Positions 46,568 to 64,000 of a DNA stretch of 64,000 bases are shown piece after piece. The position numbers were made by a program, and so were the translations under genes. Numbering within the stretch: the stretch's first letter is position 1; the number at the start of each line of letters is the position of its first letter. This stretch comes from a virus. The DNA lies in the IMG/VR virus record IMGVR_UViG_3300050821_006345, positions 68,192 through 132,191 of that record; one strand, given 5' to 3'. The notes below the pieces were generated by a model that worked only from the letters and a program-made list of their open reading frames with translations, was not told the DNA's origin and did no database searches.

Positions 46568-47074
46568 TTAATTTACTGCATTCAAAAGAGCGAACTCTCC
46601 GAAATGTTCTATTGCTGCGTTGTTGTATGCTATTGCCGCGTCACTCTCCAAGGAGAAGACACCAAGATATTTTCCCTTCTTATTGACACAAATTGCGGCC
46701 TGCCATTTTTGAATTCTTCCAATCCACGATACACCTTTGAATTTGCTTTTGCAGCCCGGCGCCTTTCGTCGGTTTTGTCCGTTCTGAGCGCGTGTGGATG
46801 GACGAAGGTTTATTCGCTGATTGTTCAATCCGTCACCGTCTTTATGATCCACCACATCAACGCCAATTTCAGCCGCAATCAGTCGGTGCATTTTAATGTG
46901 TTTTTGAATCGGATTTGCCTTACCACCGCCAAGATATGCGTTTCTGGCGGCATAGTAAATGGTTCGGTTTTTTAGTTTATAAGTTTCGGTTGACCATCCC
47001 CATTGATTAAGCCATTCAAAATCGCAATCATCAACCAGTGCGACCTTGCCATGCGTTAGTGGAATTTCCTTCAT
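46568..47074 (-). CDS. HNH-AP2 homing endonuclease
   Basis: MHRLI...VDHKDGDGLNNQRINLR; SKFKGV...YLGVF...AAIAYN.AA..HFGEFA motifs. Confidence 0.92.
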   Translation of the reverse strand: MKEIPLTHGKVALVDDCDFEWLNQWGWSTETYKLKNRTIYYAARNAYLGGGKANPIQKHIKMHRLIAAEIGVDVVDHKDGDGLNNQRINLRPSTRAQNGQNRRKAPGCKSKFKGVSWIGRIQKWQAAICVNKKGKYLGVFSLESDAAIAYNNAAIEHFGEFALLNAVN

Positions 47075-47076
47075 TA

Positions 47077-48147: not shown

Positions 48148-48321
48148 TTTCGTATCGTTTTTGTCTTTCGTTGGTGGTTGGTTATTGCTGCGACGTTTCT
48201 TGGCCGTCGTTAAAGCTGTCCGTGTTGTTTCCATGATGGGCGATGACATACACGACCAGCAAAATCACGATGACCACCACGCTGCCGATTATTTTGTATT
48301 TCATGTTGTTATTTGATTTGT

Positions 48322-49059
48322 TTAATGTTTGTTCTTGGGCATGGGAGCGTCAACAACCACCTCTGCGTCCGTCACCTGTTCAGGCGTCTTGCCGTCGTCA
48401 AGCGCCGTGTCTAGCGATGCTAGAGCAGTGTTGTAGTTGTTCTGAATCGCGTCAAACGCCGTGTCAGACTTCAGCTTGGCGTAGAACTCGCCTTCGGTCA
48501 GGCCGGATGATTCGCGGGCACTGGCTGCCGCAAGACCTGCATCCCAAATCATTTTAGCACGGTCAATCTGGTCGCCAAAAAGGCCAAGCTGCTTGTGCGC
48601 CTCATTCCACTTCTTGCAGCGGTCGACATACACGCGCTTCAGATCGGCCAAGTCGCCGCTTAACTTGACATAGCTTGGGTCGTTCTTGCCATACTTGTCT
48701 GCAATGGCGTCCACGCGGTCAGAGAAAGTTCTTATCTGGCCGTTAAGGTTTTCAATGGCGGTTTTGCGGTTGTCCAATGCGATGGTCTTGTCTCGCAGGT
48801 CGCCCTGAAGGGTCTGGATTGGATTCTTTGCGGCTTCGGCTGTAATGAGCCTTAATCGCAGGTTGCCAGCCTTTTGTGCAACCCATGGTGCGAAGAAGAT
48901 GACGCCGCAGCCGATTGAGCCAGCCACAATCAGACCGACCAGGCCAGTGACGACGGTGGCTGCGATTGGAGCGAAGAAGAAGGCGGCGACACAAAGGAGT
49001 CCGACCTTCACGAGGGTTTCTGTCCGTTTCCGTTTTTTATCAATATCTATTTGATTCAT
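48322..49059 (-). CDS. Two-TM membrane protein with long coiled coil
   Basis: Hydrophobic hairpin followed by a PspA-like coiled coil. Confidence 0.55.
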   Translation of the reverse strand: MNQIDIDKKRKRTETLVKVGLLCVAAFFFAPIAATVVTGLVGLIVAGSIGCGVIFFAPWVAQKAGNLRLRLITAEAAKNPIQTLQGDLRDKTIALDNRKTAIENLNGQIRTFSDRVDAIADKYGKNDPSYVKLSGDLADLKRVYVDRCKKWNEAHKQLGLFGDQIDRAKMIWDAGLAAASARESSGLTEGEFYAKLKSDTAFDAIQNNYNTALASLDTALDDGKTPEQVTDAEVVVDAPMPKNKH

Positions 49060-49111
49060 GTTTAGTTGAAGGATGAGAAAATAATCGGCTTAAGTCAACC
49101 GAAATTAATAA

Positions 49112-49867
49112 TTAAATCAGGTCGCCTTGCGTGGACTTCACTTGGACTGGTGCGGAGATGAGCTGCGGCTGGTCTAGCTCGGCCTGAATGCGGTCGCGGC
49201 CAATCGCGCAGTATTCTTCGAGCAGCTCGCAGCCCACGAATTTTCTTCCCATGCGGACGGCCACGGCTCCGGTGGTGAAGCTGCCGCCAAACGGATCGAA
49301 TATCAGGTCGCCCGGCTCGCTGCTAATTTCGATTAGTTGGGCAATAACGTGTTCGGCCTTTTCCGTTGGGTGCCCAAATTGCGGAGGCTTGACGTCAACG
49401 AACTTCACCTTCCGGTAATGGTCGTATGGGCTGATCGGAGAAAAGTAACAGTCCTTTCCCCTCATGAAAAGGCAAAGCTCGGTGTCTGGCAGATACTTGT
49501 TGTTCTTGGCCGGAATCGGGTTTCGTTTCGCCATGATAAGCAAATCCCACGATTCGATGCCTTCGGCCTTCATCCACGTCAGGTAGTCCAGCAGGTTATT
49601 CTTGGCCGCGAAGAAGTAGCCGTGGTTGCACACGCTCCAGATTTGCGGCATGAAGTTCTGCGGGACGAACGTGTCAATGTCAATTTTCCCAATGTTTGCC
49701 AGACCAGACCGTTCTGCGTGGATTCCACCGCCAACGACGTTAATCGAATACGGAGGATCTGCACAAATCAATTTAACGCCAAGAGTCTTAATTTGGTCAA
49801 TGAATGTTCGGCAATCTCCGTTAAGGATTTTTGCGCGTCCACAGGAAGATTCCCAGAAATAGTTCAC
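49112..49867 (-). CDS. Amino (N6/N4) DNA methyltransferase
   Basis: ADPPY, HPTEK and DPFGGSFTT motifs. Confidence 0.88.
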   Translation of the reverse strand: MNYFWESSCGRAKILNGDCRTFIDQIKTLGVKLICADPPYSINVVGGGIHAERSGLANIGKIDIDTFVPQNFMPQIWSVCNHGYFFAAKNNLLDYLTWMKAEGIESWDLLIMAKRNPIPAKNNKYLPDTELCLFMRGKDCYFSPISPYDHYRKVKFVDVKPPQFGHPTEKAEHVIAQLIEISSEPGDLIFDPFGGSFTTGAVAVRMGRKFVGCELLEEYCAIGRDRIQAELDQPQLISAPVQVKSTQGDLI

Positions 49868-50487
49868 GTCTCAATGGCGGTTAAAAGGTCTTCCCATAAC
49901 GCCCACGGAACTACCGCCCGTTCCGCACTCCCTTTGATTCCTTGCGTGCCAGTCTTTGCACCTCTTGGCGCAGCCTCATGATCAGGATTTCCGTTGTGGC
50001 ACATCGGTCTTGGATTCCAGTTCGGAACAGCTCCCCACAGGTCGGTCGGCTTCATTCGTTTGTCACCATACCGGCAGTAGGTGATGGTTGTTATTGGCAG
50101 GTCGGCCACGCAAGGAAGCTTCCTTAACATTCCGCGTGGATTCTCAATCAGATAGCCTTTTGGAGGATTCAGTTCAAGAATCAGGTTCTTGGTATGCTCG
50201 ACCAGTTTCTGGTGAAGAACAGCCTGTGCTGTTTTAGGGACATAAGCTTTTGCTCCGCCACCCCAATGATGTCCCATTGAGGCGACCGAGAAACTTTCGC
50301 AAGGCGGGGAAGCCCAAATGAAGTCAAAGCCAACGAAGTCTGAAGCCGTGCATTTAAGAATGTCCGCAGTGATGTCGCAGCCGAACTTCGGATTATTGTC
50401 GAGCGTGACGTAGGTGTGGCCGCGAGCCTCAATCTTGCTTCGGCGTTGCGCTCCACCAAGTCCGGCAAACAGGTCAAGTATCCTCAC
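49864..50487 (-). CDS. Short C5-type DNA methyltransferase
   Basis: LDLFAG, WASPPCESFS, IENPRG and YC.YG...KPTDLW motifs. Confidence 0.8.
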   Translation of the reverse strand: MRILDLFAGLGGAQRRSKIEARGHTYVTLDNNPKFGCDITADILKCTASDFVGFDFIWASPPCESFSVASMGHHWGGGAKAYVPKTAQAVLHQKLVEHTKNLILELNPPKGYLIENPRGMLRKLPCVADLPITTITYCRYGDKRMKPTDLWGAVPNWNPRPMCHNGNPDHEAAPRGAKTGTQGIKGSAERAVVPWALWEDLLTAIET

Positions 50488-51222
50488 TCCGGCCTTGCGG
50501 CCATTTTCTTGGCACGCTTAAGTTTGCGAATCAATGATGTTGCGGTGATGATTCCACAGCAAACCAGCTCGTCAACCTCGGCAATCAAATCCTCAATCGC
50601 CTTCTTTTTGGCCGCTTTTAATTTTTCGTTTTTGCTCATAATTATCCAGTCTTTGTTTAAGTTTTCGCTCTTTTTTCAATCGCGCCTTCCAGATGGCCTC
50701 CAAGTCAAATTTTGTCATTGGCCGACCCTTGTGGTTTCTCGGAGTGTTGGCATCCGGAATTTCCATCACGTCACCGTTTGAAAGCGGAATGGAAAGCATC
50801 GTGGTCGCCAATATCGCTGCGGCCAGTCCTGTTTGCTTCATTCTCATTTGTCCTTCTTGGTTGGATTCTCGTCCTGAACCTGCTCGAAAATGTCCCAGAA
50901 GATTCTGGCCGCATAAAGCAGCTGCCAGATAGCCATGTCCGTCGATCCGTCGTCTGTTACATCGCACTGGCGAAAGTTCTTATGAAACCGCTCGTCAAGT
51001 TCCGGCAGTTTATCCTTCCACCGATTCAACAGATGCCACAAGGCACGTTCCGCAGGAATGTTCTTGTCCTTCGTGGCCTCGTCGTAAAGCTTAAGAAGCC
51101 TTTCGATGCGTGATTTTTCTTTTGGTGACATATCGTTATTGTTTCAACGCGGACAGATTGCGAAATCGGCCAGTCAAAGTCAATGTGAATAAGGCGGATG
51201 CTTAATGGCCTCCTGCGCCCGC

Positions 51223-51735
51223 TCAAATCTGGACGTGTTTCCACCTAACACCATGCACCACGTTCCATATTGCTCCGGGAACAACGCCAAACTCTTTAGC
51301 CAGCGCGCGGCCTCCGTTAAATGGACACCGCTTCTTAAAGCGACGTTTGATTTCACGGACTTTTTCTTCAGTTAAGATTGCGTTATATCTGTCCTCTCCG
51401 TTTTCCTTATGTGATCGGCCTTTGGCAATCATATCTAGCGCATTGTCTCGCTCTGTTCCGGCGAATAAATGGTTTGGATTGCAGCACGGAGGGTTATCGC
51501 AAGTGTGGCAAATATCCATTCCTTCTGGAATTGCACCATTGTGCAATTCATACGAAAACCGATGCGCTCCGATTTTCCTATCTCCGATCCACATATCTCC
51601 GTAATGATAAAACGGTGGAGGCCCGTGGCGACTTCCTTGCCACTCCCAGCAATCATTTTCTCCGAGTCGCTGAACGTTGGCCCAAAAGTGCTGAATTAGC
51701 TCCTGCCGGTTTCTTTTTATGATTACGCTCCGCAT
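51223..51735 (-). CDS. HNH homing endonuclease
   Basis: CWEWQG, AHRFSY, CHTCDNPPCCNPNHLFAGT..DN motifs; start uncertain. Confidence 0.9.
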   Translation of the reverse strand: MRSVIIKRNRQELIQHFWANVQRLGENDCWEWQGSRHGPPPFYHYGDMWIGDRKIGAHRFSYELHNGAIPEGMDICHTCDNPPCCNPNHLFAGTERDNALDMIAKGRSHKENGEDRYNAILTEEKVREIKRRFKKRCPFNGGRALAKEFGVVPGAIWNVVHGVRWKHVQI

Positions 51736-51865
51736 TTTTCCATCTCTGCAAAGACGCAGCTCGCGCCTGACTGGTGGTTCTTGATTTAGATTTACCAACT
51801 CCCGCGCTTCCGCCCTTGGAGCCGATTGACTTAAGATAGTTTGTAATGGTTGCATTCGTTGTCAT
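51653..51865 (-). CDS. Small basic peptide (YLKSIGSKGG...RW)
   Basis: ATG directly after a promoter; KGG-type motif. Confidence 0.55.
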   Translation of the reverse strand: MTTNATITNYLKSIGSKGGSAGVGKSKSRTTSQARAASLQRWKNAERNHKKKPAGANSALLGQRSATRRK

Positions 51866-51897
51866 AAATATACGCAAGCGGCTTGCGGATGCAAGTG

Positions 51898-52368
51898 CTA
51901 GATTTCACTTTTGTTCCATTGTCCCGCTTCACAAATCCAACCCCTCTGACGTGCCTCTGGAATATTTGAATGCACCCAGCGATGGCCTGCCTTGCTCATC
52001 GCGATCCAAAACCGCTGGTCGCGCAGCAAAGAGCCAAGGCGACCTCTGGAGTGGTGTATTTCAGTCAGTTTATCCGAAATCGGCCATCCGTAACGATTGC
52101 CATCTCGCAAATCGGCTATTGAGGCCACTACAGGACACCGTTCTCCACGCCCCACAGCCTCGCTGACGAACTTTCTCGCTTCTTTGGCGTAAAGACGCCG
52201 TTCGGATGCTTTCGTGTCAGAAACCGGCTTTATGCGCGTTTGGGTGCGTTTTATGGGAGTCCGCTTGATTGACTTGGCCGATTTTGGCTTGTTTGGCCGA
52301 ATCTGGTCTGGAAACGCAGTTTGCCAAAGCGCAGGACGACCTTTCTTGACGTAGCCTCGCAGTGCCAC
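51898..52368 (-). CDS. HNH-like protein
   Basis: CP...TEIHH.RGR.....W.....GHRWVH.N..EA...GW pattern. Confidence 0.6.
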   Translation of the reverse strand: MALRGYVKKGRPALWQTAFPDQIRPNKPKSAKSIKRTPIKRTQTRIKPVSDTKASERRLYAKEARKFVSEAVGRGERCPVVASIADLRDGNRYGWPISDKLTEIHHSRGRLGSLLRDQRFWIAMSKAGHRWVHSNIPEARQRGWICEAGQWNKSEI

Positions 52369-53221
52369 TTAACCGTTCCCCTCAAGCTCCGCCGGAAGCG
52401 AAGGTAGTTCCACGTATGTCCACCACGACCCTAATGTCTTGATTGGCTTCACATCCTCTTCCGACCATCCGAACAAAAGCATCTTGGGCTTTCCTTCGTC
52501 GATGTAAACCACCGGACGCCAGTTCTCGGTCGGGTAGTTCTTCTTGTCGGCCCTCTTCCACTTGTCCTCAAAGACCTGAACGTCCACCACATCCTTGAAC
52601 TCCCTCATCGCCCTCTGTTTCATTCGATAGTGCGATGTCTCCTCCTCGGTGAACAAAGCCTCGATGCGCTTTGAGCCGTCGGTGAATTTTAGCTCCACAA
52701 AGAATTTCATCTGGTTAGGAAATAACGTCGTCAATGGCCTTCTTCAAATCCGGCGTCCACCACGGAACATTCGTCATGTCCTGCTCGGAGATGAATCCCA
52801 AGAGTTGTGCCGCGAGGATCGTCCGCTCGATGATGCCTTGGCCGACCTCGAACGGATGCCAGCTTGTCACTGTGACGGTCGATCCTGTGGTTGTTCCGGT
52901 TTCCTTCGTCTTTTCATCCGTCAGAAACTTTTCAATCTCCTCGATGTCGGCCAGAGATTCGATTGTCTTCTTCCTTCTGATTCCGGCGCGCCCAATCTGG
53001 CCTTCACTGGTGGTGTAGGTGACGAAGTAGCGGTTGGTGGCCAGTTCCTGCTTCGTCCAGTTCTTATCCAGTTCGTCCATGGTCACTGGAATCTGAATCC
53101 CGGCGTCGGTTTGGAGCGTCACTTTTTTCATCACGGTATCATACACTTCCACGGCACCAAGCTGTGGAGGTTCGCCGTTTGATTTGTAAATGTCGCCGAT
53201 TTCTATTTTAGTTTTCATAAT

Positions 53222-54568
53222 TTAGGCCATTGAAATTTCTTCCGTCACAGGAATCCTGATAGATAGCTTGCGGCGATAGTATTGTCCGGCAATTGATCCA
53301 GCCTTGCCGCCAGCTGCGACGGTGACCGACCATCCTTCATGACGGTCGCTGCGCCATTCGTCGCCCTTGATAATCTGCTCTCCGTCCTCAAGCAGACGAT
53401 AGCCGTCTCCGGCCACTATTGCTGGCAATTCAGATTTAACTCTGCGCCGATAAATCGTGGTCGGATACGGAGGCTGGCCGACAATGTGGCCGGGAGAGAC
53501 TGTGATTGACCAGATGCCCCTGACTCCGAGCCACTGGTCTCCAGTTTGAACGGCATCGCCATCCTTTAATTGAACGTATCCTTCTCCAACGTCAACCTGC
53601 GACTCTGGTTTTGCTTCCGACTTTTCAATCAGCATCTTCTTGCGTCGGATTAACTGTGCTGCTCCGGCTGGATTGCCAAGATACTGGTCGTGGACTCGAC
53701 GCCAGCCATCTGGCGCTTTTACCTCATCCGAACCAATAAGAATCTCGGCTGGCAGAAGCCTGCGATACCCTTCACCAACGTCCTCGTCCGGCTCGGCCTC
53801 GGCAGCGGTGCAGGCCGGACCACATGGTGTCTCGCCCCCGTTGGATTCTTGCGACCAGAAGTGGAAGCAGTCGGGACAGAGAAAACTGCCAGACCCATCA
53901 GCCTCGGCGTTAAACCTCCCGCACGATGGACACTGGATGTCACCAGCGGCTGGCGTCTCGTCCTCAATGTCCCACTCTCGCTGTGCGCCGCTGTATTTCG
54001 TCGCTCCACCGTAAGGGCGATGGCTTGTGAAGTTCCAGTAGTTATTCGAGTATTCACAATCGCCAACCCTTGTGAACTGGCCGTAAGTTTTAACCGTTCC
54101 ATCTGGCCGCAGAACCACGAACCTGTTTCCGGTTGAAATATGGTTGAGGATGCCCTCTCCGCGCATAGAAACAATCCGCGCCAGAACCATCGAGTCGGAT
54201 GCGAACTCCGGATATTTCACTCCCGCAAGCTGCGCCATGTATTTCCAATCTTGGATTGTGCCGTTATGGAAGAACACCGGACAGTTGGTCACTCCGTCCA
54301 TGTCGGCGTTGTGCTTTCTTTTGACAACGAATGGATGGCACAGGGCGGGAATCACCTTGCCGACCGATGCAATGCGGAAATGGAAGATGTGCGGGAACGG
54401 CTTGTTGGCGACCAAGTCCTGCATCTGTTCTGCGGTGATTCCCTTCTTGAAATGGACAAATCCATTCTCCGCCCACGCCACGCCGCCGCCGTGAGGATTC
54501 TTGTCCTGACATTTATACAATGTAGGAAGGTCTGGGTCTTTAGTGGGAGCTACAACGATGACGCACAT
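53222..54568 (-). CDS. Class II glutamine amidotransferase with Zn ribbon and three C-terminal repeats
   Basis: N-terminal Cys2, NPHGGG, HFRIAS, HPF, HNG and SDS motifs; repeats G.GY..L..G..I..GD.W. Confidence 0.88.
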   Translation of the reverse strand: MCVIVVAPTKDPDLPTLYKCQDKNPHGGGVAWAENGFVHFKKGITAEQMQDLVANKPFPHIFHFRIASVGKVIPALCHPFVVKRKHNADMDGVTNCPVFFHNGTIQDWKYMAQLAGVKYPEFASDSMVLARIVSMRGEGILNHISTGNRFVVLRPDGTVKTYGQFTRVGDCEYSNNYWNFTSHRPYGGATKYSGAQREWDIEDETPAAGDIQCPSCGRFNAEADGSGSFLCPDCFHFWSQESNGGETPCGPACTAAEAEPDEDVGEGYRRLLPAEILIGSDEVKAPDGWRRVHDQYLGNPAGAAQLIRRKKMLIEKSEAKPESQVDVGEGYVQLKDGDAVQTGDQWLGVRGIWSITVSPGHIVGQPPYPTTIYRRRVKSELPAIVAGDGYRLLEDGEQIIKGDEWRSDRHEGWSVTVAAGGKAGSIAGQYYRRKLSIRIPVTEEISMA

Positions 54569-55140: not shown

Positions 55141-56282
55141 ATTTTATCTCCGTTCACAAATTTCTTTTTCAGCCGAATACCAAAGTTGGTGAAAACGTCA
55201 TAGGTCACCGAGTCCTTCAGCTTGGCCAGCTCATGGACACCGATGCGATCCGTTCCCTGACCGCCCATGATTGCCGCTTCGTCTCCAGTCTTGGCCTCTG
55301 GTATGCCGGTGACGTCCACCATCATTGAATCCATGGAGTTGCCACCGAGCGTCGGTGCTTTCTGGCCGTGAATTAAAACGTGGCCCTTGTTGCAAAGCCT
55401 CGGCATCCCGTCGCCGTAGCCCATCGGAAGCACAGCCACTCTCCGCTCTGACGTCGCCGTGTAATTCATTCCGTAACCCACGGTCTCGCCGCGTTTAACT
55501 TTCTGAATTGCGGCAATCTTGGCCTTGACGCTCATGACCTGACGGATGCCTTCAATCTTCCGGCAGCCAAAAGGAGTCACTCCTGTGTAAAGGATTCCAG
55601 AGCGCACCATATCGTATTGGGCGTGGGGAAGATTAAGATGGCCTCCGCTGTTGCAGGCCGAAACGATGCCGGGACTGATTCCTGCTGATTCCATCCCGCC
55701 GAGAACTGATTCAAACCGCTCCAGCTGAAGCATGGCGAACGTCTTGTCGGAAGCGTAAGACTTGGCGAAGTGGGTCATCGTGCCTTCAATCTGAATGTTG
55801 GCCATCAAAGCGACTTGAGAAATCAAAGGCATGGCCTCGTCCCACCGGACTCCGTATCGGCTCATGCCGGTTTGAATCTCAATGTGAACAGGAATCTGCC
55901 TTCCGATTTTCTCCGCAGATTGGTTTAATTTTGCGATGTTATTCAGGTCGCCGGAGCAGATGGTTATTCCATGCTCGGCGCAAAATTCAATTTCGGAAGG
56001 ATGCCGCTCGTAGAACAGAACAATCTTGCAGGCATCTGGCAGAAGTCCGCTGCTCCGCAGTTTCCACGCCTCGTCAACAGTTGAAACAGCAAGCCCCCAT
56101 GCTCCGGCTTGGAGTGCAAGCTGGCCAACCGTGACGGCATCGTGGCCGTAGGCGTCGTCTTTCAGCACGGCCAGATACTTTACCTTGGCCGGAATGTCGG
56201 CTCGGATTAGTTGAAGGTTCTTGCGAAGCTTGGCAACGTCAATCTCAACCCAAGCGGCACGGTCTGGAGGATTCACTGGCAT
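55137..56282 (-). CDS. alr: Alanine racemase
   Basis: AVLKDDAYGH (PLP lysine), TGMSRYG, THFA, NSGG, DMVRSG, VGYG, GYGDG and SMD motifs. Confidence 0.92.
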   Translation of the reverse strand: MPVNPPDRAAWVEIDVAKLRKNLQLIRADIPAKVKYLAVLKDDAYGHDAVTVGQLALQAGAWGLAVSTVDEAWKLRSSGLLPDACKIVLFYERHPSEIEFCAEHGITICSGDLNNIAKLNQSAEKIGRQIPVHIEIQTGMSRYGVRWDEAMPLISQVALMANIQIEGTMTHFAKSYASDKTFAMLQLERFESVLGGMESAGISPGIVSACNSGGHLNLPHAQYDMVRSGILYTGVTPFGCRKIEGIRQVMSVKAKIAAIQKVKRGETVGYGMNYTATSERRVAVLPMGYGDGMPRLCNKGHVLIHGQKAPTLGGNSMDSMMVDVTGIPEAKTGDEAAIMGGQGTDRIGVHELAKLKDSVTYDVFTNFGIRLKKKFVNGDKI

Positions 56283-56791
56283 ACTTCCTCCAGTAGATGG
56301 CGGGCTTCTCTGGCATCGCGGTAGTTATCGCCACCCGGATCAGGAACTGATTGGAAATCCTCCAGTTCTTCAATGTAGGCGGATGGCAGATTGTTTTGTT
56401 TTGCTCCGACAACGACAAGTTGCAGATACCAATCGTAAATCGGAAGCCCTCCGGCAGTCCGGTCGGAATTGTGAAAGGCGCAGACAACCACGCCAAGCTC
56501 CGGTGAATTGACGGACATCTCGAAAACCGAGTAGCCCTTTTCCATTTCAGAAAGCGCGGAAAACTCCGATTCCGGCATCTCGTAAATAACGCCCCAGACA
56601 CTGGATGCCTCGGCCACGACCAAATTTGCCTTGCCGCACTGCATTCCGTTCTTGCGGGTGGATATTTTGCCGAAGCAAATCTTCAGGCCGACGGCCTTGC
56701 CAGTGCCAATCTTCCTTGCACTTGGACATCTGGCCTGAATGCGCTCCTTGAGCAAATTCGATCCGTAGCTGAAATACTTAATCGCGTTCAT
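56273..56791 (-). CDS. Gamma-glutamylcyclotransferase (AIG2-like)
   Basis: YFSYGSNL, VWGVIY, E.GY and GA....LP..YI..L motifs. Confidence 0.88.
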   Translation of the reverse strand: MNAIKYFSYGSNLLKERIQARCPSARKIGTGKAVGLKICFGKISTRKNGMQCGKANLVVAEASSVWGVIYEMPESEFSALSEMEKGYSVFEMSVNSPELGVVVCAFHNSDRTAGGLPIYDWYLQLVVVGAKQNNLPSAYIEELEDFQSVPDPGGDNYRDAREARHLLEEVCQ

Positions 56792-57115
56792 GTAATTATT
56801 TTGAAGCCGCCGCGAGGCCCATGCCAATATACTTGTCAGCTTTTGGCTTCGTAAAATAAACAATCACGCCGCGTTTGGGAATGATTGGGAAATCCTCTGC
56901 CGAAAGCAGCCCACGAAGCAGGAATCTGTCTGTCACCAAACATTTTACCGGATTTTTTACATTGGCAGGAACCAAATCCTCTTCGCCAATTTTAGCCACG
57001 CTGTAACTTGATGTTTTATTCATATCGTTATTTTCTTTCCGCGTTTCGGATTCTTCACCCTCGACGCTGGACAGAGGATGCTTTATTGGCCAAAGCAAGT
57101 CAACCGAAATAATCT

Positions 57116-57775
57116 CTATTGCATCAGCTCCAGAAGCTCCGGAGGCAGCTCGCTCTTGCGGGCATGGCTCTGCGCGGTGAAGGCGACGTGGATTGGGCTG
57201 TTGGTCAGGTAGTCCTCGACGCACTTGACGATGCGGGTCACTCCGTCCACGGCAATGTTGACGTCCTTGAACGTCGGCAGCATCCGGCACTCCGCCGTCT
57301 TGTGAAGACCCCAGCAGAAGTTCCATTGCGTCCATCGTTCACCAGTTCCCTTGGACGTGGCTTTGATCTGCATCTCCGGCTTCCATTCTTTTTTGCAGAA
57401 CTTGTTTTCTCCGGCCAGCCGCGAGAAGAAATGCTTGTTGGTCGTCCGGCGTTTGCCCCATGCGGCCATCTCCTCAAGGAAGAATTCTTGGAAACGACGG
57501 TCGATGATTCGAGCGTAGTTAATCGGATTCTTCAGGCTGACATGGACGTGGAGGCCGCAGGTTGAGTTGGTGTGCGGCGGATAGACCCGCCTCATCCACT
57601 GGTCGAGTTCAATCAGATTCTCGGTCGGATGCGAAACATATTCTCTAGATGTTATGCCGGATTCGCTGAAGCTCACCGATCCGTCGGAGTGAGCCGAACC
57701 GGGTTCTGGTGGAGGAAGGTTTCCGCTGTTCCAGCCGCCCTCAATTTCAACGCCAACTTTGTGAATGTGGTTCAT
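57116..57775 (-). CDS. Amidoligase (COOH-NH2 ligase, glutamine synthetase-like fold)
   Basis: GVEIEG, DGSV, EYVS, TCGLHVHVS and TAECR motifs. Confidence 0.85.
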   Translation of the reverse strand: MNHIHKVGVEIEGGWNSGNLPPPEPGSAHSDGSVSFSESGITSREYVSHPTENLIELDQWMRRVYPPHTNSTCGLHVHVSLKNPINYARIIDRRFQEFFLEEMAAWGKRRTTNKHFFSRLAGENKFCKKEWKPEMQIKATSKGTGERWTQWNFCWGLHKTAECRMLPTFKDVNIAVDGVTRIVKCVEDYLTNSPIHVAFTAQSHARKSELPPELLELMQ

Positions 57776-58491
57776 ATTAAGCTTCAAGTGGAATTACCGC
57801 GTAAATTACAGCCTTGTCCGCATGACAAAGATTGCCTCTTGCCGTCACCGCTTGGCAATACTTTTCTTTTACCGCCTCAAGAACAATCTGAGAAAGCGGC
57901 TCTTCCGTATCGAATCCTTGGTTGCCATCGCAAATTTGGCCAGCCTCGGTTATCACCTTAATTGCGACCATGTATCGTTTCATGCTTCGTGATACCAGCA
58001 GGTGGTGATTACCTTGACCCGTGATTTCTCGACGAAATGGTTGTGCAGGTCGGTCGCAAACGACTGAAGACGGTCGGCAAACTCTTTCAGCACAGTCACA
58101 CCAGCCGGAGTCATGGCCGAAGGCGGAATGACGAACCTGACCCCGTCCTTGATGTCCTTGGCCTGAAGGAACGACGCATTTATGTTCGGCCCGTTGAAAA
58201 CAATGGCCTCTGGCGAATTTAGAATGACTCCGTGGGACTTTCCATTGTCTGCCAGCTTCTTGGCAATCGTGTTGTTGAAGCTGCGGCATTCGATACTGCA
58301 AAGCGTGAAGTTTGGATTCCTTGGTGAGCAGATTGGCGACCAGTCAATGTCCGACTGGATGTTCACCACCGTTCCCGATTCATTTCTTTCAACGCGAAGG
58401 ACTATGATTTTGGCTGATTGGATTGGCATTGGTCGTATCGTTGTTTAATTTGCGTGGACAGCTTGCGAAATAGTTCTGGCGAAGTCAACGG

Positions 58492-59097
58492 TCATCTGTG
58501 AAGAAAAAGCAGGTGGTCTGGATGACTTGAAAACAGGAAGCTGATGGGCGCAAGCGGAAGTGGTGCTTTTGGCTGGCGGATAAGTTTATGGCCGGATTCT
58601 TCGAGCGTCTTATTTCCGCGAGAATGATTTATGCTTTTCGTTACAAGGGCAAGGTTAGTCCAATCGTCGCTGCCTCCCCTTGATTTAGGGAGGCAATGTT
58701 CGATAGACCAATCGGACGGGCCGATTTTTTCTCCTGTTATTTGGCACGTGGAATTGTCCCTCGCCGCGAGGCCTTTTAAGTTCTTCTTCGGGACGCGCCT
58801 TCTCGTGGCATTATATTTTCCGAGGATTATGATGGTTGGACAGCGGAAATCAAAGTGCAGTGAATGAAGAACATCGTCGTCGGGTCTGGTTGGCCGAAAC
58901 TCCATTCCTGTTCTAATCGGCAGTGTAATCCACTGATCCCAGCGGCACGGATAAAACGCATTGACGTAGTCCTGAACGTCCAGAGCGGTCGCGACCCCGG
59001 TCATTATCATCGGAAGGCAGTGTTTTACTGATTGAATTTCATGGGCCTGCCACGAACGGTTCAAAACCAAAACATTCAGGTCTAATGCTGATTTCAT
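58492..59097 (-). CDS. HNH endonuclease
   Basis: VLVLNRSWQ, ARDNSTCQITG and IEH.LPKSRGG..DWTNL....IN motifs. Confidence 0.85.
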   Translation of the reverse strand: MKSALDLNVLVLNRSWQAHEIQSVKHCLPMIMTGVATALDVQDYVNAFYPCRWDQWITLPIRTGMEFRPTRPDDDVLHSLHFDFRCPTIIILGKYNATRRRVPKKNLKGLAARDNSTCQITGEKIGPSDWSIEHCLPKSRGGSDDWTNLALVTKSINHSRGNKTLEESGHKLIRQPKAPLPLAPISFLFSSHPDHLLFLHR

Positions 59098-59166
59098 TGA
59101 AGGAACATGGTGGTAAAACTAACGAAGAACTGCAAGAAGTAACCTCGATGAAGACTGAAAGGAAGG

Positions 59167-59243
59167 TGGCGATGCCGATTGGAGTTGCACCAACATGAAT
59201 CCGTTTAGGAAACGGAGCCGGGTCTATTTCCGGTGACGGCATC
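59167..59243 (-). tRNA. tRNA-Arg(CCT)
   Basis: GATGCCG/CGGCATC-GCCA acceptor; TCCGT-TTCCTAA-ACGGA anticodon arm; T-loop TGCAACT. Confidence 0.8.
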
Positions 59244-59247
59244 AAAT

Positions 59248-59335
59248 TGGCACCCGCTTCTGGATTTGCACCAGAGTGTGGATTGCTCCATGCTGATCCA
59301 AAGTCAGCTGCCTTCGACTACTCGGCCAAGCGGGA
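59248..59335 (-). tRNA. tRNA-Gln(TTG) with long variable arm
   Basis: GCTGA-CTTTGGA-TCAGC anticodon arm; V-arm TGGA-GCAA-TCCA; G73-CCA. Confidence 0.8.
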
Positions 59336-59546
59336 ATTAAATCTTTTGAACGTCCGGAGCGTCAATGTTCGGATAGCCGTTAGCCTTCGCCCAAGCAGTT
59401 ACTGCTTCGTCGCCATCCCATGTGTATTCATCGGCGTTCTCCCCGGCCTCGCGGTCAAGCGTGGCGATTATGTCGCCGGACTCGACATCGTAAAATTGAG
59501 CGATGTTGCCACGGTCGTCTACGTCGTATGGTTCTGTCATAAATTT

Positions 59547-59622
59547 TGGCGTTGCTGGCCGGGCTTCCACCGGCTAGGAACTGTTCGAGAAACAGTGCGC
59601 TCGTGTCTTTGCATTCAGCAAC
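59547..59622 (-). tRNA. tRNA-Glu(CTC), non-canonical elbow
   Basis: GTTGCTG/CAGCAAC-GCCA acceptor; ACTGT-TTCTCGA-ACAGT anticodon arm; T-loop TGGAAGC. Confidence 0.7.
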
Positions 59623-59628
59623 AATAAA

Positions 59629-59702
59629 TGGTCGTCGATCCGGTGTTTTCATCCGGAGCCTTCGCCTTATAAAGACGCCGCTCTCACTTGAGCTAATCGA
59701 CG
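59629..59702 (-). tRNA. tRNA-Ile(TAT)
   Basis: CGTCGAT/ATCGACG-ACCA acceptor; GCTC/GAGC D stem; loop TTTATAA; T-loop TGAAAAC. Confidence 0.7.
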
Positions 59703-60524
59703 GTAAATTAAAACTCCGGACATTTTCTCAGGACGCCGGAGAACTGCTAACAACCGGCTGGTCGCCGGAAATCTTCTTTTCCAAATAACGGATGCGTGAT
59801 TGAATGAGTGGTTTGGCCAGTTCGCCATCCGGCGTAATTTTCTCAAGCTCTTTCAATCCGGCCAGTTCAGCGTGGTCGCTCACTCCCTGCGGTTCTGGCT
59901 TCTGCTCTGGTTGTTTGGCAGTTTCCACGAAAAACCGTTTCAGCACCGCCAGTTCCTCCGGTTTCAGATTCACGTCCACCATCTGATGCTCGCCTTTCTC
60001 GTTCAAATTATCTGGCATGAACAGCTGAAGATGGTCTGTCTTCAGGTCGATGCGGTGAAAGAACATTCCAAGCATCTCACAGGCTTGGACGAGGATCGGC
60101 CCGTCAAAAACGCCCCAATGCTCCGGCACAAAGTCCTTCTGGCACTTGCTGCACCAAAGATGGTCTCTGTATTCAGAGTATTCGCAGTCGTTGTTGCCGC
60201 AGGCGCATCCGGGAATGCCGTAGATGGACGGCTTCTGGCAATACATCCATTCGCGCTTTTCTAATTTTGTTTCTTCGTTTGGCATATTAGGCTGTTTGGT
60301 TTCTGGCCAATCGCAATAGTCTGCGTTCGTAAAATTTGTTCACAAACTCCCAAACGCCGTCCTTAAAAAGAGCCAGTGCATTATAGTCGTTTGCTTCATC
60401 GGCCACTATTACAAATTCTTTCGGATGATTGCCGATGTGTTCAAGCATTGCTCGGCAGCCAAACAAACCTGACTGTTCGCGGCCTTTTTCATCTATCCAT
60501 ACTGCAATCGCATTCATAAATTGA

Positions 60525-60648
60525 TGGTCGTGCCGTGCGTCACTCGGCCATTCTTACTAACTGCCTACGGTTTTCAGAACTTCCCGATTGCAATCAGGTC
60601 GCCCACCGCGATTTAGCTTGCTCCGTCCGCGCCGGAGTCTGCCGACCA
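60525..60648 (-). ncRNA. Rod-like structured RNA candidate downstream of tmRNA
   Basis: TGGTCG/CGACCA ends, nested helices, apical CCTGATT/AATCGGG. Confidence 0.45.
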
Positions 60649-60650
60649 AA

Positions 60651-61051
60651 TGGAGGAGATGACGAGAGTCGAACTCGTGTCGAATGTTAATACTGCGCCA
60701 CTTCTATATGCTTTTCAGATTTTGTTCATCCCGACTTGATCCGCATCAAGTTGTCCGGGCAGTCGGCGTTAACCAGCCGTTGGCCGACCCTACTTTTGCT
60801 AGAGTCCACACCGCCCTGCTGGTTTCGTCGCTTCGCATAAGCAGGAGTCCTGCGGGCGACGGACTGGCACTTTAGGCCAATGCTGCTTCACCGCACGTGG
60901 CGGGTGTTCCGAAGAACTCCGCAACGCGGGCGAAGGCGCTATGAATCATCGTAGCATTTGTGTTTTGATGCGAATGATTAACGAGGCCAACGCATCGTCC
61001 TCGGCATATGGCGAACACAATGGTTATCATCCTCGATACCTTTGCATCCCC
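60651..61051 (-). ncRNA. ssrA: tmRNA
   Basis: 5' GGGGATG..AGG.ATCGA; 3' GACACGAGTTCGACTCTCGTCATCTCCTCCA with G3:U70; pk1 (CCGAGG/CCTCG, GATGCG/CGCATC); tag ORF 60955-60872 ending EAALA. Confidence 0.9.
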
Positions 61052-61531
61052 GTAAATTCTTAAATCACCTTCAGCGGCTTGTTTTCCATGTGGCCGAAAC
61101 ATCCGAACACATCCTGCTGCGGGATTGAAAACGAAAACACCTCGTCGCTGTCCGTGTGAATGGCGGCATTGACCATGTTCGGCATCGCCTTTAGCTTGGC
61201 TTTGGCCGATGCAAAATCAGGAGCATCAACGGCGACTCCGTGGACACTCATCGTTACAGTGCCGTTAAGTATGGATTCTGTAAGCAGGAACATCATGGCG
61301 TTGATCCTAAATAATTCCGCTTCAAAAAGCGAGCGGATTCTTTGGCCGATTTCACCACTTGATGCGGAGTCAGGTCGTCAAACCGTCCACCGCAGTCGTC
61401 CTTGTCAGACTTCAGATTAAACATGGTCGGTGTGGAGCTTGGCGCATTGCACTGGCGCACAAACTCGGCCTTGTCCTTCTTGGACAATTTCACCCAACCC
61501 TTCGGATATTTTGCTTTGCTCATAATTCAAA

Positions 61532-61620
61532 TGGCGGAAGCCGCAAGTCCTGCCCTCGATGCCGTTTCCGGCACAATCGGTGTAGCACACCGCTCCAGTC
61601 CTCGACATGGTTCAGCTTCC
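61532..61620 (-). tRNA. 8/4 allo-tRNA-like tRNA-Ser(GCT)
   Basis: 8-bp acceptor GGAAGCTG/CGGCTTCC, 4-bp T stem, extended D stem, V-arm GTGCCG-GAAA-CGGCAT, G73-CCA. Confidence 0.8.
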
Positions 61621-61654
61621 ATTAAATTCATTTTGATAAATTGGCCGCGCGAAG

Positions 61655-62023
61655 TCAACACGGAAGAACGATCTTCAGGCCGGCCTTGATTGCCACCGAA
61701 ACCATGTTTTTAGAACCGGGTGATTCACCGTTCCAGAAACAAACCAACGCTCCAGCATATTCGGATATTTCAGCGGCGTAGGCTGCCATCGCCTCGTTTC
61801 GCATCGGGCCAGCGGCCTTGCCATACCGATCCCAATCCGGTAAAAATCGCTTCACCGGAATGCCGCGCTGCCTCGCCCATTCCTCGCCGATTGCGTCCGA
61901 TCCTTTTGCGCCGCCGGAAATCACTTCCACTATCTTGAAGTCCAGCGCATCGAGGGCGTCAAAGGCGAACTGTGTGTCGACGAACGAGCGTGACCCGGCG
62001 ATTATGCACTTGTATTCTTTCAT
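61655..62023 (-). CDS. SLOG/YspA (DUF2493) family protein
   Basis: IIAGSR, VISGGAKGSD, AGPMRN..M and GS.NM motifs. Confidence 0.85.
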   Translation of the reverse strand: MKEYKCIIAGSRSFVDTQFAFDALDALDFKIVEVISGGAKGSDAIGEEWARQRGIPVKRFLPDWDRYGKAAGPMRNEAMAAYAAEISEYAGALVCFWNGESPGSKNMVSVAIKAGLKIVLPC

Positions 62024-62027
62024 AGAT

Positions 62028-62117
62028 TGGTGGCATCGGTGGTGCTTGCAACCACAACAAGGCTTTCGCCTACAACTTGGTTTGAGCAAGTTAGGTATCC
62101 ATTCCCGTCACGATGCC
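62028..62117 (-). tRNA. tRNA-Leu(CAA)
   Basis: ACTTG-CTCAAAC-CAAGT anticodon arm; long V-arm; A73-CCA. Confidence 0.85.
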
Positions 62118-62123
62118 GAAAAG

Positions 62124-62206
62124 TGGCCTATAAAAGATTTGCACTTTTAAGGACAAGCCGTTTTAAGTGGCTCGCTTCTGCTGGTTTCGCTTTCGTCCAA
62201 TAGGCC
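62124..62206 (-). tRNA. tRNA-Leu(TAA), atypical architecture, no encoded CCA
   Basis: GGCCTAT/ATAGGCC-A acceptor; loop CTTAAAA; extra GGAC/GTCC helix. Confidence 0.65.
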
Positions 62207-62211
62207 GTAAA

Positions 62212-62297
62212 TGGTGGTCGTGGAAAGACTTGCACTTTCAATAGGATTGCTCCTGAACGCCCCTCAAGCGTTTGCGTCTACATTGCGCCACACGACC
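62212..62297 (-). tRNA. tRNA-Leu(GAG)
   Basis: AACGC-TTGAGGG-GCGTT anticodon arm; V-arm AGGA-GCAA-TCCT; A73-CCA. Confidence 0.85.
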
Positions 62298-62298
62298 G

Positions 62299-62380
62299 TC
62301 GCTTCGGCAGAACTCGCATCTGCAATCCTTTCGGAATATGCTCCTGAAGCATACGCGCTTACTGATTTCGCCACGAAGCG
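62299..62380 (-). tRNA. tRNA-Leu(CAG), no encoded CCA
   Basis: TATGC-TTCAGGA-GCATA anticodon arm; V-arm TCC-GAAA-GGA; A73. Confidence 0.85.
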
Positions 62381-62386
62381 GAAAAT

Positions 62387-62462
62387 TGGTAGCGACGGAG
62401 GCGGTTGCAGCCCCATACACGATGCCCTAAACATCGTTGCGTTTCTATTAGCATACGTCGCC
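62387..62462 (-). tRNA. tRNA-Leu(TAG) with short variable loop
   Basis: CGATG-TTTAGGG-CATCG anticodon arm; 5-nt V loop; A73-CCA. Confidence 0.75.
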
Positions 62463-62517
62463 GACAAAATCGGTAAAATTATTCCTCACCACTCTCTTTC
62501 CTGTGGCACTTTGTTCA

Positions 62518-62820
62518 ATGGCCGTTTCCCGCGTCATCTTCAAAAGACCAAAAGTCGTGTATAAGCACATCCGGGAGATGGGAGTCGTTGGCCTCGCCTA
62601 CAACGACCGGCAGGACGACAAATACGGAACGGTGGAGGTTGATCCCCGTCAGTCCGATGCCGAATTCATAAAAACAACGGTGCATGAGCTGCTCCATTGG
62701 CACTTCCCAGACTTAACCGAGCGGCAGGTCGTTAAAATGGAGAAGGCGTTCGGCAAAAAAGTGTGGAACGCGGTTAGCCGGTTAAGGCGGAAGTGGAATA
62801 AGGCGAGCCTGCCAAGATAA
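62518..62820 (+). CDS. Small HExxH metallopeptidase-like protein
   Basis: VEVDPRQ...TTVHELLH motif. Confidence 0.65.
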   Translation: MAVSRVIFKRPKVVYKHIREMGVVGLAYNDRQDDKYGTVEVDPRQSDAEFIKTTVHELLHWHFPDLTERQVVKMEKAFGKKVWNAVSRLRRKWNKASLPR

Positions 62821-62875
62821 TTGCAATCTTCCCACCGATTTACGAAATCGGATTGTGCGCGTGCGGCAGGCAAAA

Positions 62876-62962
62876 TGGTGCAACCGAGGAGACTCGCACT
62901 CCTGATGGACTTTCGTCGTCGGCTTAAGAGGCCGTTCCGTTCGCTGCTCCGGGCACGATTGC
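62876..62962 (-). tRNA. tRNA-Lys(CTT) with long variable arm
   Basis: CGGC-CTCTTAA-GCCG anticodon arm; V-arm GAC-GAAA-GTC; A73-CCA. Confidence 0.8.
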
Positions 62963-62969
62963 AAAAGGA

Positions 62970-63057
62970 TGGTTCTTGCGGTGGGACTCGCACCCACGGT
63001 GGCATATTATGCGTCGGATTAAAAGTCCGGTCGAATCGCTACTCTCGGCACGCAAGA
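62970..63057 (-). tRNA. tRNA-Lys(TTT) with long variable arm
   Basis: CGGA-CTTTTAA-TCCG anticodon arm; V-arm GCAT-AAT-ATGC; A73-CCA. Confidence 0.8.
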
Positions 63058-63064
63058 ATGAAAT

Positions 63065-63134
63065 TGGTCGCTGCTATGGAAATCGCATCCATCTTGACGG
63101 CGTATGAAACCATCGTGTTCCTAGAACCGCAGCG
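63065..63134 (-). tRNA. tRNA with CAT anticodon (Met or Ile2), shortened D arm
   Basis: CGCTGC/GCAGCG-ACCA acceptor; GTTC-TAG-GAAC D arm; loop TTCATAC; T-loop TGCGATT. Confidence 0.65.
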
Positions 63135-63512
63135 GAAAGATTTGTGGGCGCGATAGTTTCGCCACAGCTCATTTAAGATAACCGCCGGACTTTCACCGGA
63201 ACTCCCACGAAATTAAGCGCCGACGTGATGCTATTTCACTACATCGCAAATGGGCTTTATGTTTCCAATGCCTCACGCGCACTTATGATGGAGTGCGAAG
63301 GATGCAAACGATGGCCGGTTATGCTCCGGCGTCTGCGGCTAAATCTATGGAGCCTGCACAGGGACGTCCGCCCTGCTCTCATCCTTACCGAGGACGCGCG
63401 TCGGTATCTACGCTTTACAGGCAAAGTGGTGGTGCGGAAACTGGGAGTTTCGCCCAGACAGACTGCTTGGAAGGCAGTCATGCTCAATTGACATCATTTC
63501 CGCATTAAAATA

Positions 63513-63586
63513 TGGAGGCCAACTCAGGACTTCCACCTGATACGCTTCGTTTGCTGCGAAGCCGCTCGTGTCTTTGCTTGTCGGCC
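63513..63586 (-). tRNA. tRNA-Cys(GCA), non-canonical elbow and A33
   Basis: GGCCGAC/GTTGGCC-TCCA acceptor (U73); CTTCG-CAGCAAA-CGAAG anticodon arm; T-loop TGGAAGT. Confidence 0.75.
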
Positions 63587-63679
63587 AAAAGTGTTCCGAT
63601 ATTTCCCGCCTCGGATTTACGCGAATTATTCATGCCTTTCGGCAACTCGCGAGGGCGCAGTCTCCATTGCTGGAGAAGT

Positions 63680-63754
63680 TGGGGCGAACGACGCTGCTTG
63701 CAAGCGCATAGGCGACCTTCACGGGGTCGGGCATTACGTTATGCTACGTTCGCC
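63680..63754 (-). tRNA. tRNA-His(GTG) with G-1:C73 and C33
   Basis: GGCGAACG/CGTTCGCC-CCA acceptor; CGACC-CCGTGAA-GGTCG anticodon arm; T-loop TGCAAGC. Confidence 0.8.
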
Positions 63755-64000
63755 ATCAAAATTGAAACGCCGCTCCCGTGACACCACGGGCATATTATTT
63801 GTGCGACAGAAGCAATTTTCTGCCAGCGGCTAAAATTCTAAACTATGGCCTTCCGCATCTGGTCAAACAGCGAGTGGCCGACATCCGGTGGCACTGGCTC
63901 TCTGCTCTCTGTTGGTCTGGCAGTTAAAAATGGGTTGGTCGGGGTCACCGTCCACGGACTCCACCGAGCGATTATCGCTTCAGGAAAGCATTTGTCCGGT

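Follow-up and report, generated by a model that had tools for sequence, protein, structure and literature searches.

Do the tRNA genes of phages respect the division of tRNAs into two structural classes? In bacterial cells, long variable arms are limited to tRNALeu, tRNASer, tRNATyr, and tRNASec, a textbook rule (PMC7609411; PMC9976931). The question is raised by a tRNA array at the end of IMG/VR virus record IMGVR_UViG_3300050821_006345, which is linear, 132,191 bp long, and rated 78% complete. We analyzed its last 64 kb (positions 68,192 to 132,191), a stretch of 64,000 nucleotides that we call the window and in which coordinates are given unless another source is named. A sequence-only reading of the window had cited the same cellular rule and claimed that four tRNAs break it, with tRNALys(CUU), tRNALys(UUU), and tRNAGln(UUG) gaining long arms and tRNALeu(UAG) losing its arm, and it had proposed either disguise of tRNA shape from anticodon nucleases or deliberate missense decoding. 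The explanation that we favor, with a confidence somewhat above even, is that these are transcribed phage elongator tRNAs whose bodies have been swapped between structural classes, in which the parts read by synthetases have been kept and which would be charged with their cognate amino acids.

The four genes are all on the minus strand. tRNALys(CUU) (62876..62962; 87 nt, with A73 and encoded CCA) was called by ARAGORN at default settings and by Rfam at 35.8 bits, and its variable region of 15 nt (62904..62918) consists of 1 nt, a 3-bp stem, a GAAA loop, and a 4-nt tail. tRNALys(UUU) (62970..63057; 88 nt, with U1-A72, A73, and encoded CCA) was called by ARAGORN at a lowered threshold and by Rfam at 36.6 bits; here the variable region of 16 nt (62998..63013) comprises 1 nt, a 4-bp stem, a 3-nt loop, and a 4-nt tail. 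tRNAGln(UUG) (59248..59335; 88 nt), found by ARAGORN at default and by the Rfam tRNA model at 46.6 bits, has a long variable arm within a 16-nt region (59276..59291) made up of 1 nt, a 4-bp stem, a 4-nt loop, and a 3-nt tail, together with a U1•U72 mismatch, G73, encoded CCA, G37, and a D arm of the Ser/Tyr type. The measured lengths of 15, 16, and 16 nt, all hairpin-forming, bear out the claim of paired arms of about 15–16 nt, and Rfam alignments place a long insertion at the variable region of each gene. When class II is defined as a variable region of at least 10 nt that forms a stem-loop, these three tRNAs belong to it, with stems of 3–4 bp, and tRNALeu(UAG) does not. The anticodons CUU, UUU, and UUG lie outside Leu, Ser, Tyr, and Sec; each is carried by a 7-nt loop closed by a 5-bp stem.

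tRNALeu(UAG) (62387..62462; 76 nt) has a class I shape, and its variable loop (62415-62419) is 5 nt long, as had been described. It is the weakest gene call of the four because the Rfam tRNA model was silent (E ≤ 1, positions 56000-64000) and ARAGORN needed a lowered threshold. Despite the weak call, it is a credible gene, as judged from a 7-bp acceptor stem (G1•U72), A73, encoded CCA, a perfect 5-bp anticodon stem, a T loop typical of the array, and a position 6 nt from the next Leu gene. The acceptor/T-stem branch is 7/5 in all four genes (7-bp acceptor stem, 5-bp T stem). Minimum-energy folding returned a five-arm cloverleaf for both Lys genes and a four-arm cloverleaf for tRNALeu(UAG); the minimum-energy fold of tRNAGln(UUG) is not a cloverleaf, and its cloverleaf comes from ARAGORN and Rfam. 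Folding z-scores were weak (−0.07 to −2.2). The further claim that the long-armed tRNAs have D arms like those of class II stands fully for tRNAGln(UUG), which has the exact 18-nt D arm of 58 phage tRNATyr, but only partly for the Lys genes, whose D arm is of its own type, with three linker nucleotides, a 4-bp stem, and an 8-nt loop.

The swapped arms are not a peculiarity of one array, as the window genes turned out to be members of a wide phage tRNA family. We scanned IMG/VR with a degenerate pattern made from the two window Lys genes and extending from the last part of the D loop through the Lys anticodon loop and a long spacer into the T loop. Long-armed tRNALys was present at 14 of 41 loci, as 11 distinct sequences of 87–91 nt, all with A73 and encoded CCA. 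A metagenome scan with a slightly longer pattern gave long-armed tRNALys at 58 of 67 loci, amounting to 40 distinct sequences of 84–93 nt. Among these 40, the anticodon was UUU in 31 and CUU in 9; at position 73, 28 had A and 8 had U, and the other 4 lacked CCA. The family layout is constant, with a variable region of 15–21 nt formed by 1 nt, a stem of 2–7 bp, a loop, and a tail of 3–4 nt, and the tail motif that follows the arm stem is conserved. Both window genes align with the family in Lys anticodon, 7/5 branch, arm layout, and conserved 8-nt D loop, and in whole-length comparisons they group with other long-armed tRNALys at 67–74% identity.

The arm of this family is a helix in which the sequence is free and the pairing is kept, as all four Watson-Crick types were seen at pair 2 and at pair 3 of its stem. 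RNAalifold, applied to 13 family members, recovered a 7/5 cloverleaf of 20 pairs, 16 of them with compensatory changes. On alignment A1 it predicted no arm helix; MAFFT did not put the arms of this alignment in register, and for that reason we measured the arm helix with a custom anchored-helix script. Compared with shuffled sequences, the anchored helix was significant (p<0.05) in 16 members of a first set of 18 genes, with a combined p of about 8e-15, and in 28 members of a second set of 40; it reached at least 3 bp in 32 of the 40 metagenome members. Arm pairing exceeds chance.

Members of the family also occur in cultured phages. Phage phiCbK has annotated tRNALys of 88 and 91 nt with normal T loops. 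A blastn query matching phiCbK found 17 records, from 12 Caulobacter and 5 Brevundimonas phages, with the long-armed tRNALys inspected in phiCbK only; the two window Lys genes themselves found no blastn match among cultured phages. In phiCbK (46195-54273; locus L134), many tRNAs carry U73, including those for Lys and Glu, one for Gln, and one for Ser. Its annotated tRNATrp of 84 nt owes this length to extra 5′ bases in the call.

The window array has an unusual elbow. Every array tRNA that we dissected (59248-63753, minus strand) has U-G-C at T-loop positions 54–56, with G in place of the near-universal U55, and the array D loops have Y-A-G at the usual G18-G19 site. The UGC T loop is also found in the tRNATyr of Microcystis phage MaMV-DC, in many IMG/VR arrays, and in arrays of Nibricoccus. 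A G55-type pattern run against 185,579 prokaryote species genomes (one each) matched two stretches, both in one Nibricoccus (Opitutales) assembly and both inside phage-like arrays of about 27 tRNAs. Since family members L122 and L125, like those of phiCbK, have a normal T loop, the long-armed tRNALys family is not tied to the odd G55 T loop.

tRNAGln(UUG) is built on the scaffold of a bacterial-type tRNATyr. It is 81% identical over 69 nt to tRNATyr(GUA) of MaMV-DC, and its 18-nt D arm was found exactly at 61 IMG/VR loci, with an ARAGORN tRNA over 60 of them. These 60 calls comprised 58 tRNATyr(GUA), one tRNAAsn(GUU) of 89 nt, and one tRNAHis(GUG) of 90 nt. Over its whole length, tRNAGln(UUG) is 73–74% identical to a phage tRNATyr, to a long-armed tRNAAsn, and to the only other long-armed tRNAGln found, versus 56–64% to most others. 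The likeness to the 58 phage tRNATyr extends from the D arm to the layout of the variable region (1 nt, short stem, 3-nt tail), which the Lys arms resemble with their tail of 3–4 nt, but the Gln gene departs from tRNATyr in its anticodon, its discriminator (G73), and its first base pair. A pattern for this gene matched 27 IMG/VR loci, 4 of which had long-armed tRNAGln, all of one sequence; at the stringency of this pattern, the form is rare. The second long-armed tRNAGln has the same U1•U72, G73, and G37.

The opposite change, a tRNALeu without its arm, is likewise found elsewhere. Our census of 305 distinct tRNA calls at 159 loci is biased, the loci having mostly been fetched by odd-tRNA patterns, and gives no prevalence; within it, 11 of 43 distinct Leu calls had class I length, at 7 loci that had been retrieved for other reasons. 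Short-armed phage tRNALeu with encoded CCA had A73 in all 9 cases. The 11 include the four short Leu genes of a phage of 168 kb (G001, locus L089, C1:5500-22500), with anticodons UAG, CAA, GAG, and UAA, all 77–79 nt long. This phage also carries long and short tRNAAsn(GUU) side by side, plus a suppressor-type tRNA with a CUA anticodon. In the window array, an aberrant Leu(UAA)-like gene (62124-62206, minus strand) with a short variable region of only 6–7 nt is a second Leu gene without a normal arm; about 27 nt separate its acceptor and anticodon stems, and it has either an A31•C39 mismatch or a 9-nt loop.

Other isotypes change class as well. Further long-armed forms in the loci that we retrieved are tRNAIle(UAU) of 92–93 nt, tRNAPro of 89–90 nt, and tRNAAsn of 88 nt. 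The tRNAIle(UAU) genes make up a second conserved long-armed family (L101 184-276, L114 2795-2886, L139 3758-3849, and L140 7256-7347), in which the arm stem covaries and the loop holds a constant 7-nt motif.

The likeness of tRNAGln(UUG) to phage tRNATyr introduces a serious rival, which we rate as unlikely though well short of negligible. On this account the arms are a by-product of gene birth, in which a class II gene of the Tyr or Leu type was duplicated and its anticodon and acceptor re-aimed; the arm would bring no benefit of its own and would be tolerated by LysRS and GlnRS, a helix being better than an unpaired loop of 15 nt. The whole-length identities of tRNAGln(UUG) fit such an origin, as does the finding that one 18-nt D arm carries Tyr, Asn, and His anticodons. 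Every long-armed isotype on the Tyr scaffold has U35, and long and short versions of one isotype lie adjacent in arrays (Asn in G001; Lys in L125 and L114). However, the long-armed tRNALys form a distinct lineage that is near no Tyr or Leu gene, has been kept, along with its conserved tail motif, over 40 or more distinct sequences, and occurs with odd and normal T loops. Moreover, arm loss in Leu recurs independently in the 7 loci, and change in both directions is unlike drift alone.

Which amino acids would these tRNAs carry? According to PMC9976931, tRNALys identity resides in U35 and A73, with G73 moving such tRNAs toward Gln; tRNAGln identity resides in the 1-72 and 3-70 pairs, the discriminator, the 10-25 pair, U35, and G36; E. 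coli tRNALeu requires A73 and neither anticodon nor arm; and bacterial tRNASer conserves G1-C72 and G2-C71, with G73 of moderate weight. Both window Lys genes contain the U35 and A73 of the Lys set, tRNALys(CUU) together with G1-C72 and C2-G71, and tRNALys(UUU) with U1-A72 and C2-G71. Their anticodon loops are canonical for Lys. tRNAGln(UUG) has U1•U72, C2-G71, C-G at 3-70, G73, G10-C25, U35, and G36, and the set of E. coli GlnRS (open 1-72, G73, 10-25 pair, U35, and G36) is present both in it and in the second long-armed tRNAGln. E. coli tRNAGln has G-C at both 2-71 and 3-70. The bacterial Ser set is absent, as G1-C72 and G2-C71 occur together in none of the three long-armed genes and G73 occurs only in Gln. 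Long-armed tRNAAsn has U1-A72 and G73, like its short neighbor, and long-armed tRNAHis has C73. tRNALeu(UAG) has A73, but its T loop has G at position 55. Acceptor ends track the anticodon, not Ser or Leu identity.

The Nibricoccus genome, the one bacterial genome among those scanned that holds the family, contains a gene for GlnRS (674.6 bits versus a cut-off of 425.8). We also considered a class I LysRS in the hosts. This type of LysRS approaches the tRNA on the side that faces away from the variable region. The candidate was dropped, as the Nibricoccus genome had no PF01921 match above cut-off (best 20.6 versus 27 bits).

We determined what the phage genes themselves expect of the codons concerned. 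One set consisted of RtcB, DnaB, alanine racemase, and a helicase, each aligned with 118–149 database homologues, and a second of four further open reading frames (ORFs) with homologues from the fetched loci; columns were counted at a consensus of at least 70%. CAA fell in 15 conserved columns (Q 10, H 2, and G, L, and E 1 each), and it corresponded to Gln in 4 of 4 columns of the helicase and 5 of 5 of the portal-type genes. AAA occupied 28 columns (K 23, R 3, G 1, D 1) and AAG 38 (K 24, R 6, Q 3, others 5), which together make 47 Lys and 9 Arg among 66, with Leu, Tyr, and Ser at zero. The 7 columns for CTA were L 5, A 1, and K 1. Ser or Tyr columns were absent for all four codons among the conserved columns counted. 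The proposal of deliberate missense decoding, with Ser placed at CAA through G73 and the long arm or Leu placed at Lys codons, found no support in these counts (Ser at 0 of 15 CAA columns, Leu at 0 of 66 AAA and AAG columns) or in the observation that the acceptor ends follow the anticodon.

Non-cognate charging in its wider form, with Ser or Tyr on tRNAGln(UUG) and Tyr or Leu on tRNALys and with missense either deliberate or tolerated, is disfavored, and we regard it as improbable. It draws on the combination of a long arm with G73 in tRNAGln(UUG) and on the G1-C72, A73, and U35 of tRNALys(CUU), which sit on a Tyr-like arm layout. There are also precedents, as nematode tRNAs with variable arms and Gly or Ile anticodons are charged with Leu (PMC3333845), and allo-tRNAs put Ser at sense codons (PMC5389517). 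Against it stand the absence of Ser and Tyr from the 15 CAA columns and of Leu, Tyr, and Ser from the 66 Lys-codon columns, the absence of G1-C72 together with G2-C71 from all three tRNAs, and the conservation of the long-armed family in many phages. In addition, both Lys isoacceptors are armed and the phage has no other tRNALys, so every Lys codon served by the array would be hit.

The window is represented in environmental sequencing runs. One soil DNA run, probably the source, contains 98% of it, and four soil metatranscriptome runs, which date from one year and may be one campaign, contain parts of it. The tmRNA gene (60651..61051, minus strand; Rfam RF00023, 79.9 bits), a translation-support module inside the array, was covered by contigs in 4 of 4 metatranscriptome runs at a depth of 12–70 and is the best-covered part of the window. 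Contigs also lie on the Leu block, and in one run a contig (62766-63066) covers the two Lys genes and reads through their arms without gap or joint. The contigs place the region, arm included, in RNA libraries; the evidence is confined to the covered parts of the window.

Roles outside decoding, in which the long-armed tRNAs would be decoys for nucleases or amino-acid donors for a tRNA-dependent transferase that uses the arm as a handle, are also improbable, to about the same degree as non-cognate charging. A cluster of amidoligase, cyclotransferase, racemase, and amidotransferase genes lies just upstream (Alr and AIG2 domains), tRNA-dependent modification of phage DNA has been published (PMC13219725), and the possibility that over-expressed viral tRNAs inhibit AriB was raised in PMC12409363. 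Yet the UUU and CUU anticodons are both kept, in the window and in the family (31 and 9 of 40), which is relevant only to decoding, the Lys anticodon loops are canonical, and the array is otherwise a broad supply of anticodons with a tmRNA alongside.

Excision of the extra nucleotides from the mature RNA, or decay of the genes into pseudogenes, is the least credible account: Rfam and default ARAGORN missed tRNALeu(UAG) and several neighboring array genes are aberrant, but compensatory changes preserve the arm helix across the family, and no joint that skips the arm appeared in the RNA-library contigs, though contigs can hide rare forms. We know of no bacterial processing pathway for a 10-nt insert at the variable-region site.

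The model that we favor is that of class-swapped elongator tRNAs with cognate charging. tRNALys(CUU) and tRNALys(UUU) are members of the widespread phage family of long-armed tRNALys; tRNAGln(UUG) has a bacterial-type tRNATyr scaffold, of the kind that other phages re-aimed to Asn and His; and tRNALeu(UAG) is a tRNALeu with its arm reduced to a loop, a form also seen in several other phage arrays. Host LysRS, GlnRS, and LeuRS would charge them with the cognate amino acids, and AAR, CAA, and CUA codons would be read in their ordinary sense. The argument for cognate charging is that the acceptor ends follow the anticodon, that the codons keep their meaning, and that both Lys isoacceptors are kept, which matters only for decoding. 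With less confidence, we suggest that the changed shape may have been kept for making the phage's own tRNAs poor substrates of host defense enzymes, either those that recognize tRNA shape or those that strike next to the variable region.

Several observations weigh against this model. The discriminator does not always track identity, as the two long-armed tRNALys of phiCbK have U73, as do 8 of the 36 metagenome members with encoded CCA (A73 in 28 of 36). The G1-C72, A73, and U35 of tRNALys(CUU) are also bacterial Tyr determinants (PMC9976931), and some tyrosylation of this tRNA may occur, judging from these positions; the G73 and long arm of tRNAGln(UUG) are likewise part of the Ser set. The elbow contact G18:U55 matters for E. 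coli LeuRS, G19-C56 being another contact between D and T loops (PMC9976931), and the window array has G at 55 throughout. CAA corresponded to Gln in 1 of 6 columns of the host-like RtcB, DnaB, and Alr. Codon columns tell what the genes expect rather than what the tRNAs are loaded with, and host tRNAs read the same codons. The RNA contigs are multi-gene and of low depth (2–4); they could represent precursors or possibly DNA carry-over, and they are silent on mature ends. Lastly, cognate charging is predicted by applying identity rules of the E. coli type to a host that is probably one of the Verrucomicrobiota.

What could favor such changes of shape? In the other half of its genome (C1:7670-8851; Pfam E 4.4e-68), the phage encodes RtcB, an RNA ligase that repairs tRNAs cleaved by anticodon nucleases; RtcB, a full private tRNA set, and tmRNA together suggest pressure on translation supply. 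The RtcB gene adjoins one for an ATP-dependent ligase with a WGR domain (C1:8854-9999), and the nearest database homologues of RtcB are 64–75% identical, the one with a named taxon being from Opitutales. Host enzymes that act on tRNAs can be sensitive to class or to sites near the arm: AbiEii and MenT3 are reported to favor class II tRNAs (bioRxiv 10.64898/2026.01.19.700257), and AriB of the PARIS system cleaves tRNALys, tRNAThr, and tRNAAsn between nucleotides 40 and 41, adjoining the point where the arm exits (PMC12409363). Escape from shape-reading host tRNA enzymes is plausible by analogy with these cases, the analogy also being what links arm and nuclease in our model. The recurrence of both changes in unrelated arrays, with arms gained in Lys-type isotypes and lost in Leu, fits escape better than drift.

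A broader proposal, which we put forward tentatively as a possibility that falls well short of our model for the window genes, is that phages re-shape their own tRNAs between classes as a general counter-defense. The arm would be gained by isotypes that nucleases attack within or close to the anticodon stem (Lys, Asn, Gln, His, and Ile(UAU)) and lost by Leu, a target of toxins with a preference for class II such as the AbiEii/MenT nucleotidyltransferases; the ends read by synthetases would be left as they are, with charging and decoding remaining normal. A parallel is phage T5, whose tRNALys, tRNAThr, and tRNAAsn resist AriB (PMC11464382; PMC12409363). There too, phage copies of targeted isotypes are at work, and two of these isotypes, Lys and Asn, also acquire arms in phages. 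The T5 variants escape through two base changes in the anticodon stem and have no new arm; the arm-based escape considered here would be a different route, proposed by analogy.

Among described tRNAs, two kinds come nearest. The nev-tRNAs of nematodes (PMC3333845) also combine a class II shape with anticodons outside Leu, Ser, and Tyr and are conserved within lineages, but they are eukaryotic, have Leu identity, and mis-decode Gly and Ile codons, whereas the ends of the window tRNAs follow the anticodon and the codons have their normal meaning in the phage genes. The allo-tRNAs and the 8/4 tRNASer and tRNAHis of bacteria and alphaproteobacterial phages (PMC5389517) resemble the window tRNAs in their long arms, in their occurrence in metagenomes and phage clusters, and, for some, in non-Ser anticodons; they differ in having an 8/4 or 9/3 branch and in being mostly serylated, whereas the window tRNAs and the 13-member consensus are 7/5. 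With their 7/5 branch the window tRNAs fall outside the second group, and with their cognate-looking ends they probably fall outside the first. For tRNALeu(UAG), the comparison is with animal mitochondrial tRNALeu and tRNASer that lack long arms (PMC9976931). A class I-shaped tRNALeu is still leucylated there, but mitochondria are organelles with a co-evolved synthetase, and a phage tRNALeu must use bacterial LeuRS. Our full-text literature searches, which left subscription journals largely uncovered, found no description of long-armed tRNALys or tRNAGln or of short-armed tRNALeu from phages; the supplements of PMC5389517 on phage tRNA clusters may bear on this. Long-armed tRNALys is annotated in cultured-phage records such as that of phiCbK, and we found no published comment on it.

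The record is assigned to a tailed phage by genes for a portal, a prohead protease, a DnaB-type helicase, and a methyltransferase. The tRNA array runs on the minus strand from about 59.2 kb to the contig end and is mixed with small ORFs and the tmRNA gene; its anticodon set is broad. The number of tRNAs depends on the program, with 4 from ARAGORN at default, 7 from Rfam (E ≤ 1, 56000-64000), and up to 13 from ARAGORN at lowered thresholds. Three Leu genes on the minus strand have long arms, namely tRNALeu(CAA) (62028-62117; variable region of 19 nt), tRNALeu(GAG) (62212-62297; 16 nt), and tRNALeu(CAG) (62298-62380; 13 nt). Dissection by ARAGORN at lowered threshold and by manual reading also gave Thr(CGU)-like and Met(CAU) genes (62805-62875 and 63065-63137, minus strand), with perfect or near-perfect acceptor stems and a D-arm space of only 13 nt.

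Outside the window, at G000:C1:940-3669 and 18307-20613, the large terminase is split by an intein with a LAGLIDADG domain and a second ORF has Hint and homing-endonuclease domains; a TnpB/Cas12f-like ORF lies at C1:15393-16772. The host is probably a member of Verrucomicrobiota, as suggested by the named nearest homologues of three proteins, all of which are from Verrucomicrobiota. Searches for related loci returned none for a 185-aa ORF of the array, 6 distant ones for the SLOG protein, and 20 for the portal at 40–48% identity, and blastn of the array against all retrieved loci gave nothing above about 82% identity. These searches yielded no syntenic array with which to compare tRNAGln(UUG) or tRNALeu(UAG) gene by gene.

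Class I and class II tRNAs are separated by one of the most stable rules of tRNA biology, under which only Leu, Ser, bacterial Tyr, and Sec have long arms. Here a natural, conserved family of tRNALys breaks this rule by having an arm, as do rarer forms for Gln, Asn, His, Ile(UAU), and Pro, and phage tRNALeu breaks it in the opposite direction. If charging is cognate, bacterial LysRS and GlnRS would tolerate a long arm and LeuRS would need none in vivo, which would be useful for the design of orthogonal tRNAs. As cultured Caulobacter phages carry long-armed tRNALys, the question is open to bench work at once. If shape defeats tRNA-directed immunity, phages would have a new escape route beside point mutations in the anticodon loop and stem, and, should the counter-defense proposal hold more generally, overall tRNA shape, beyond the sequence of the anticodon loop, would be a battleground between phages and bacteria.

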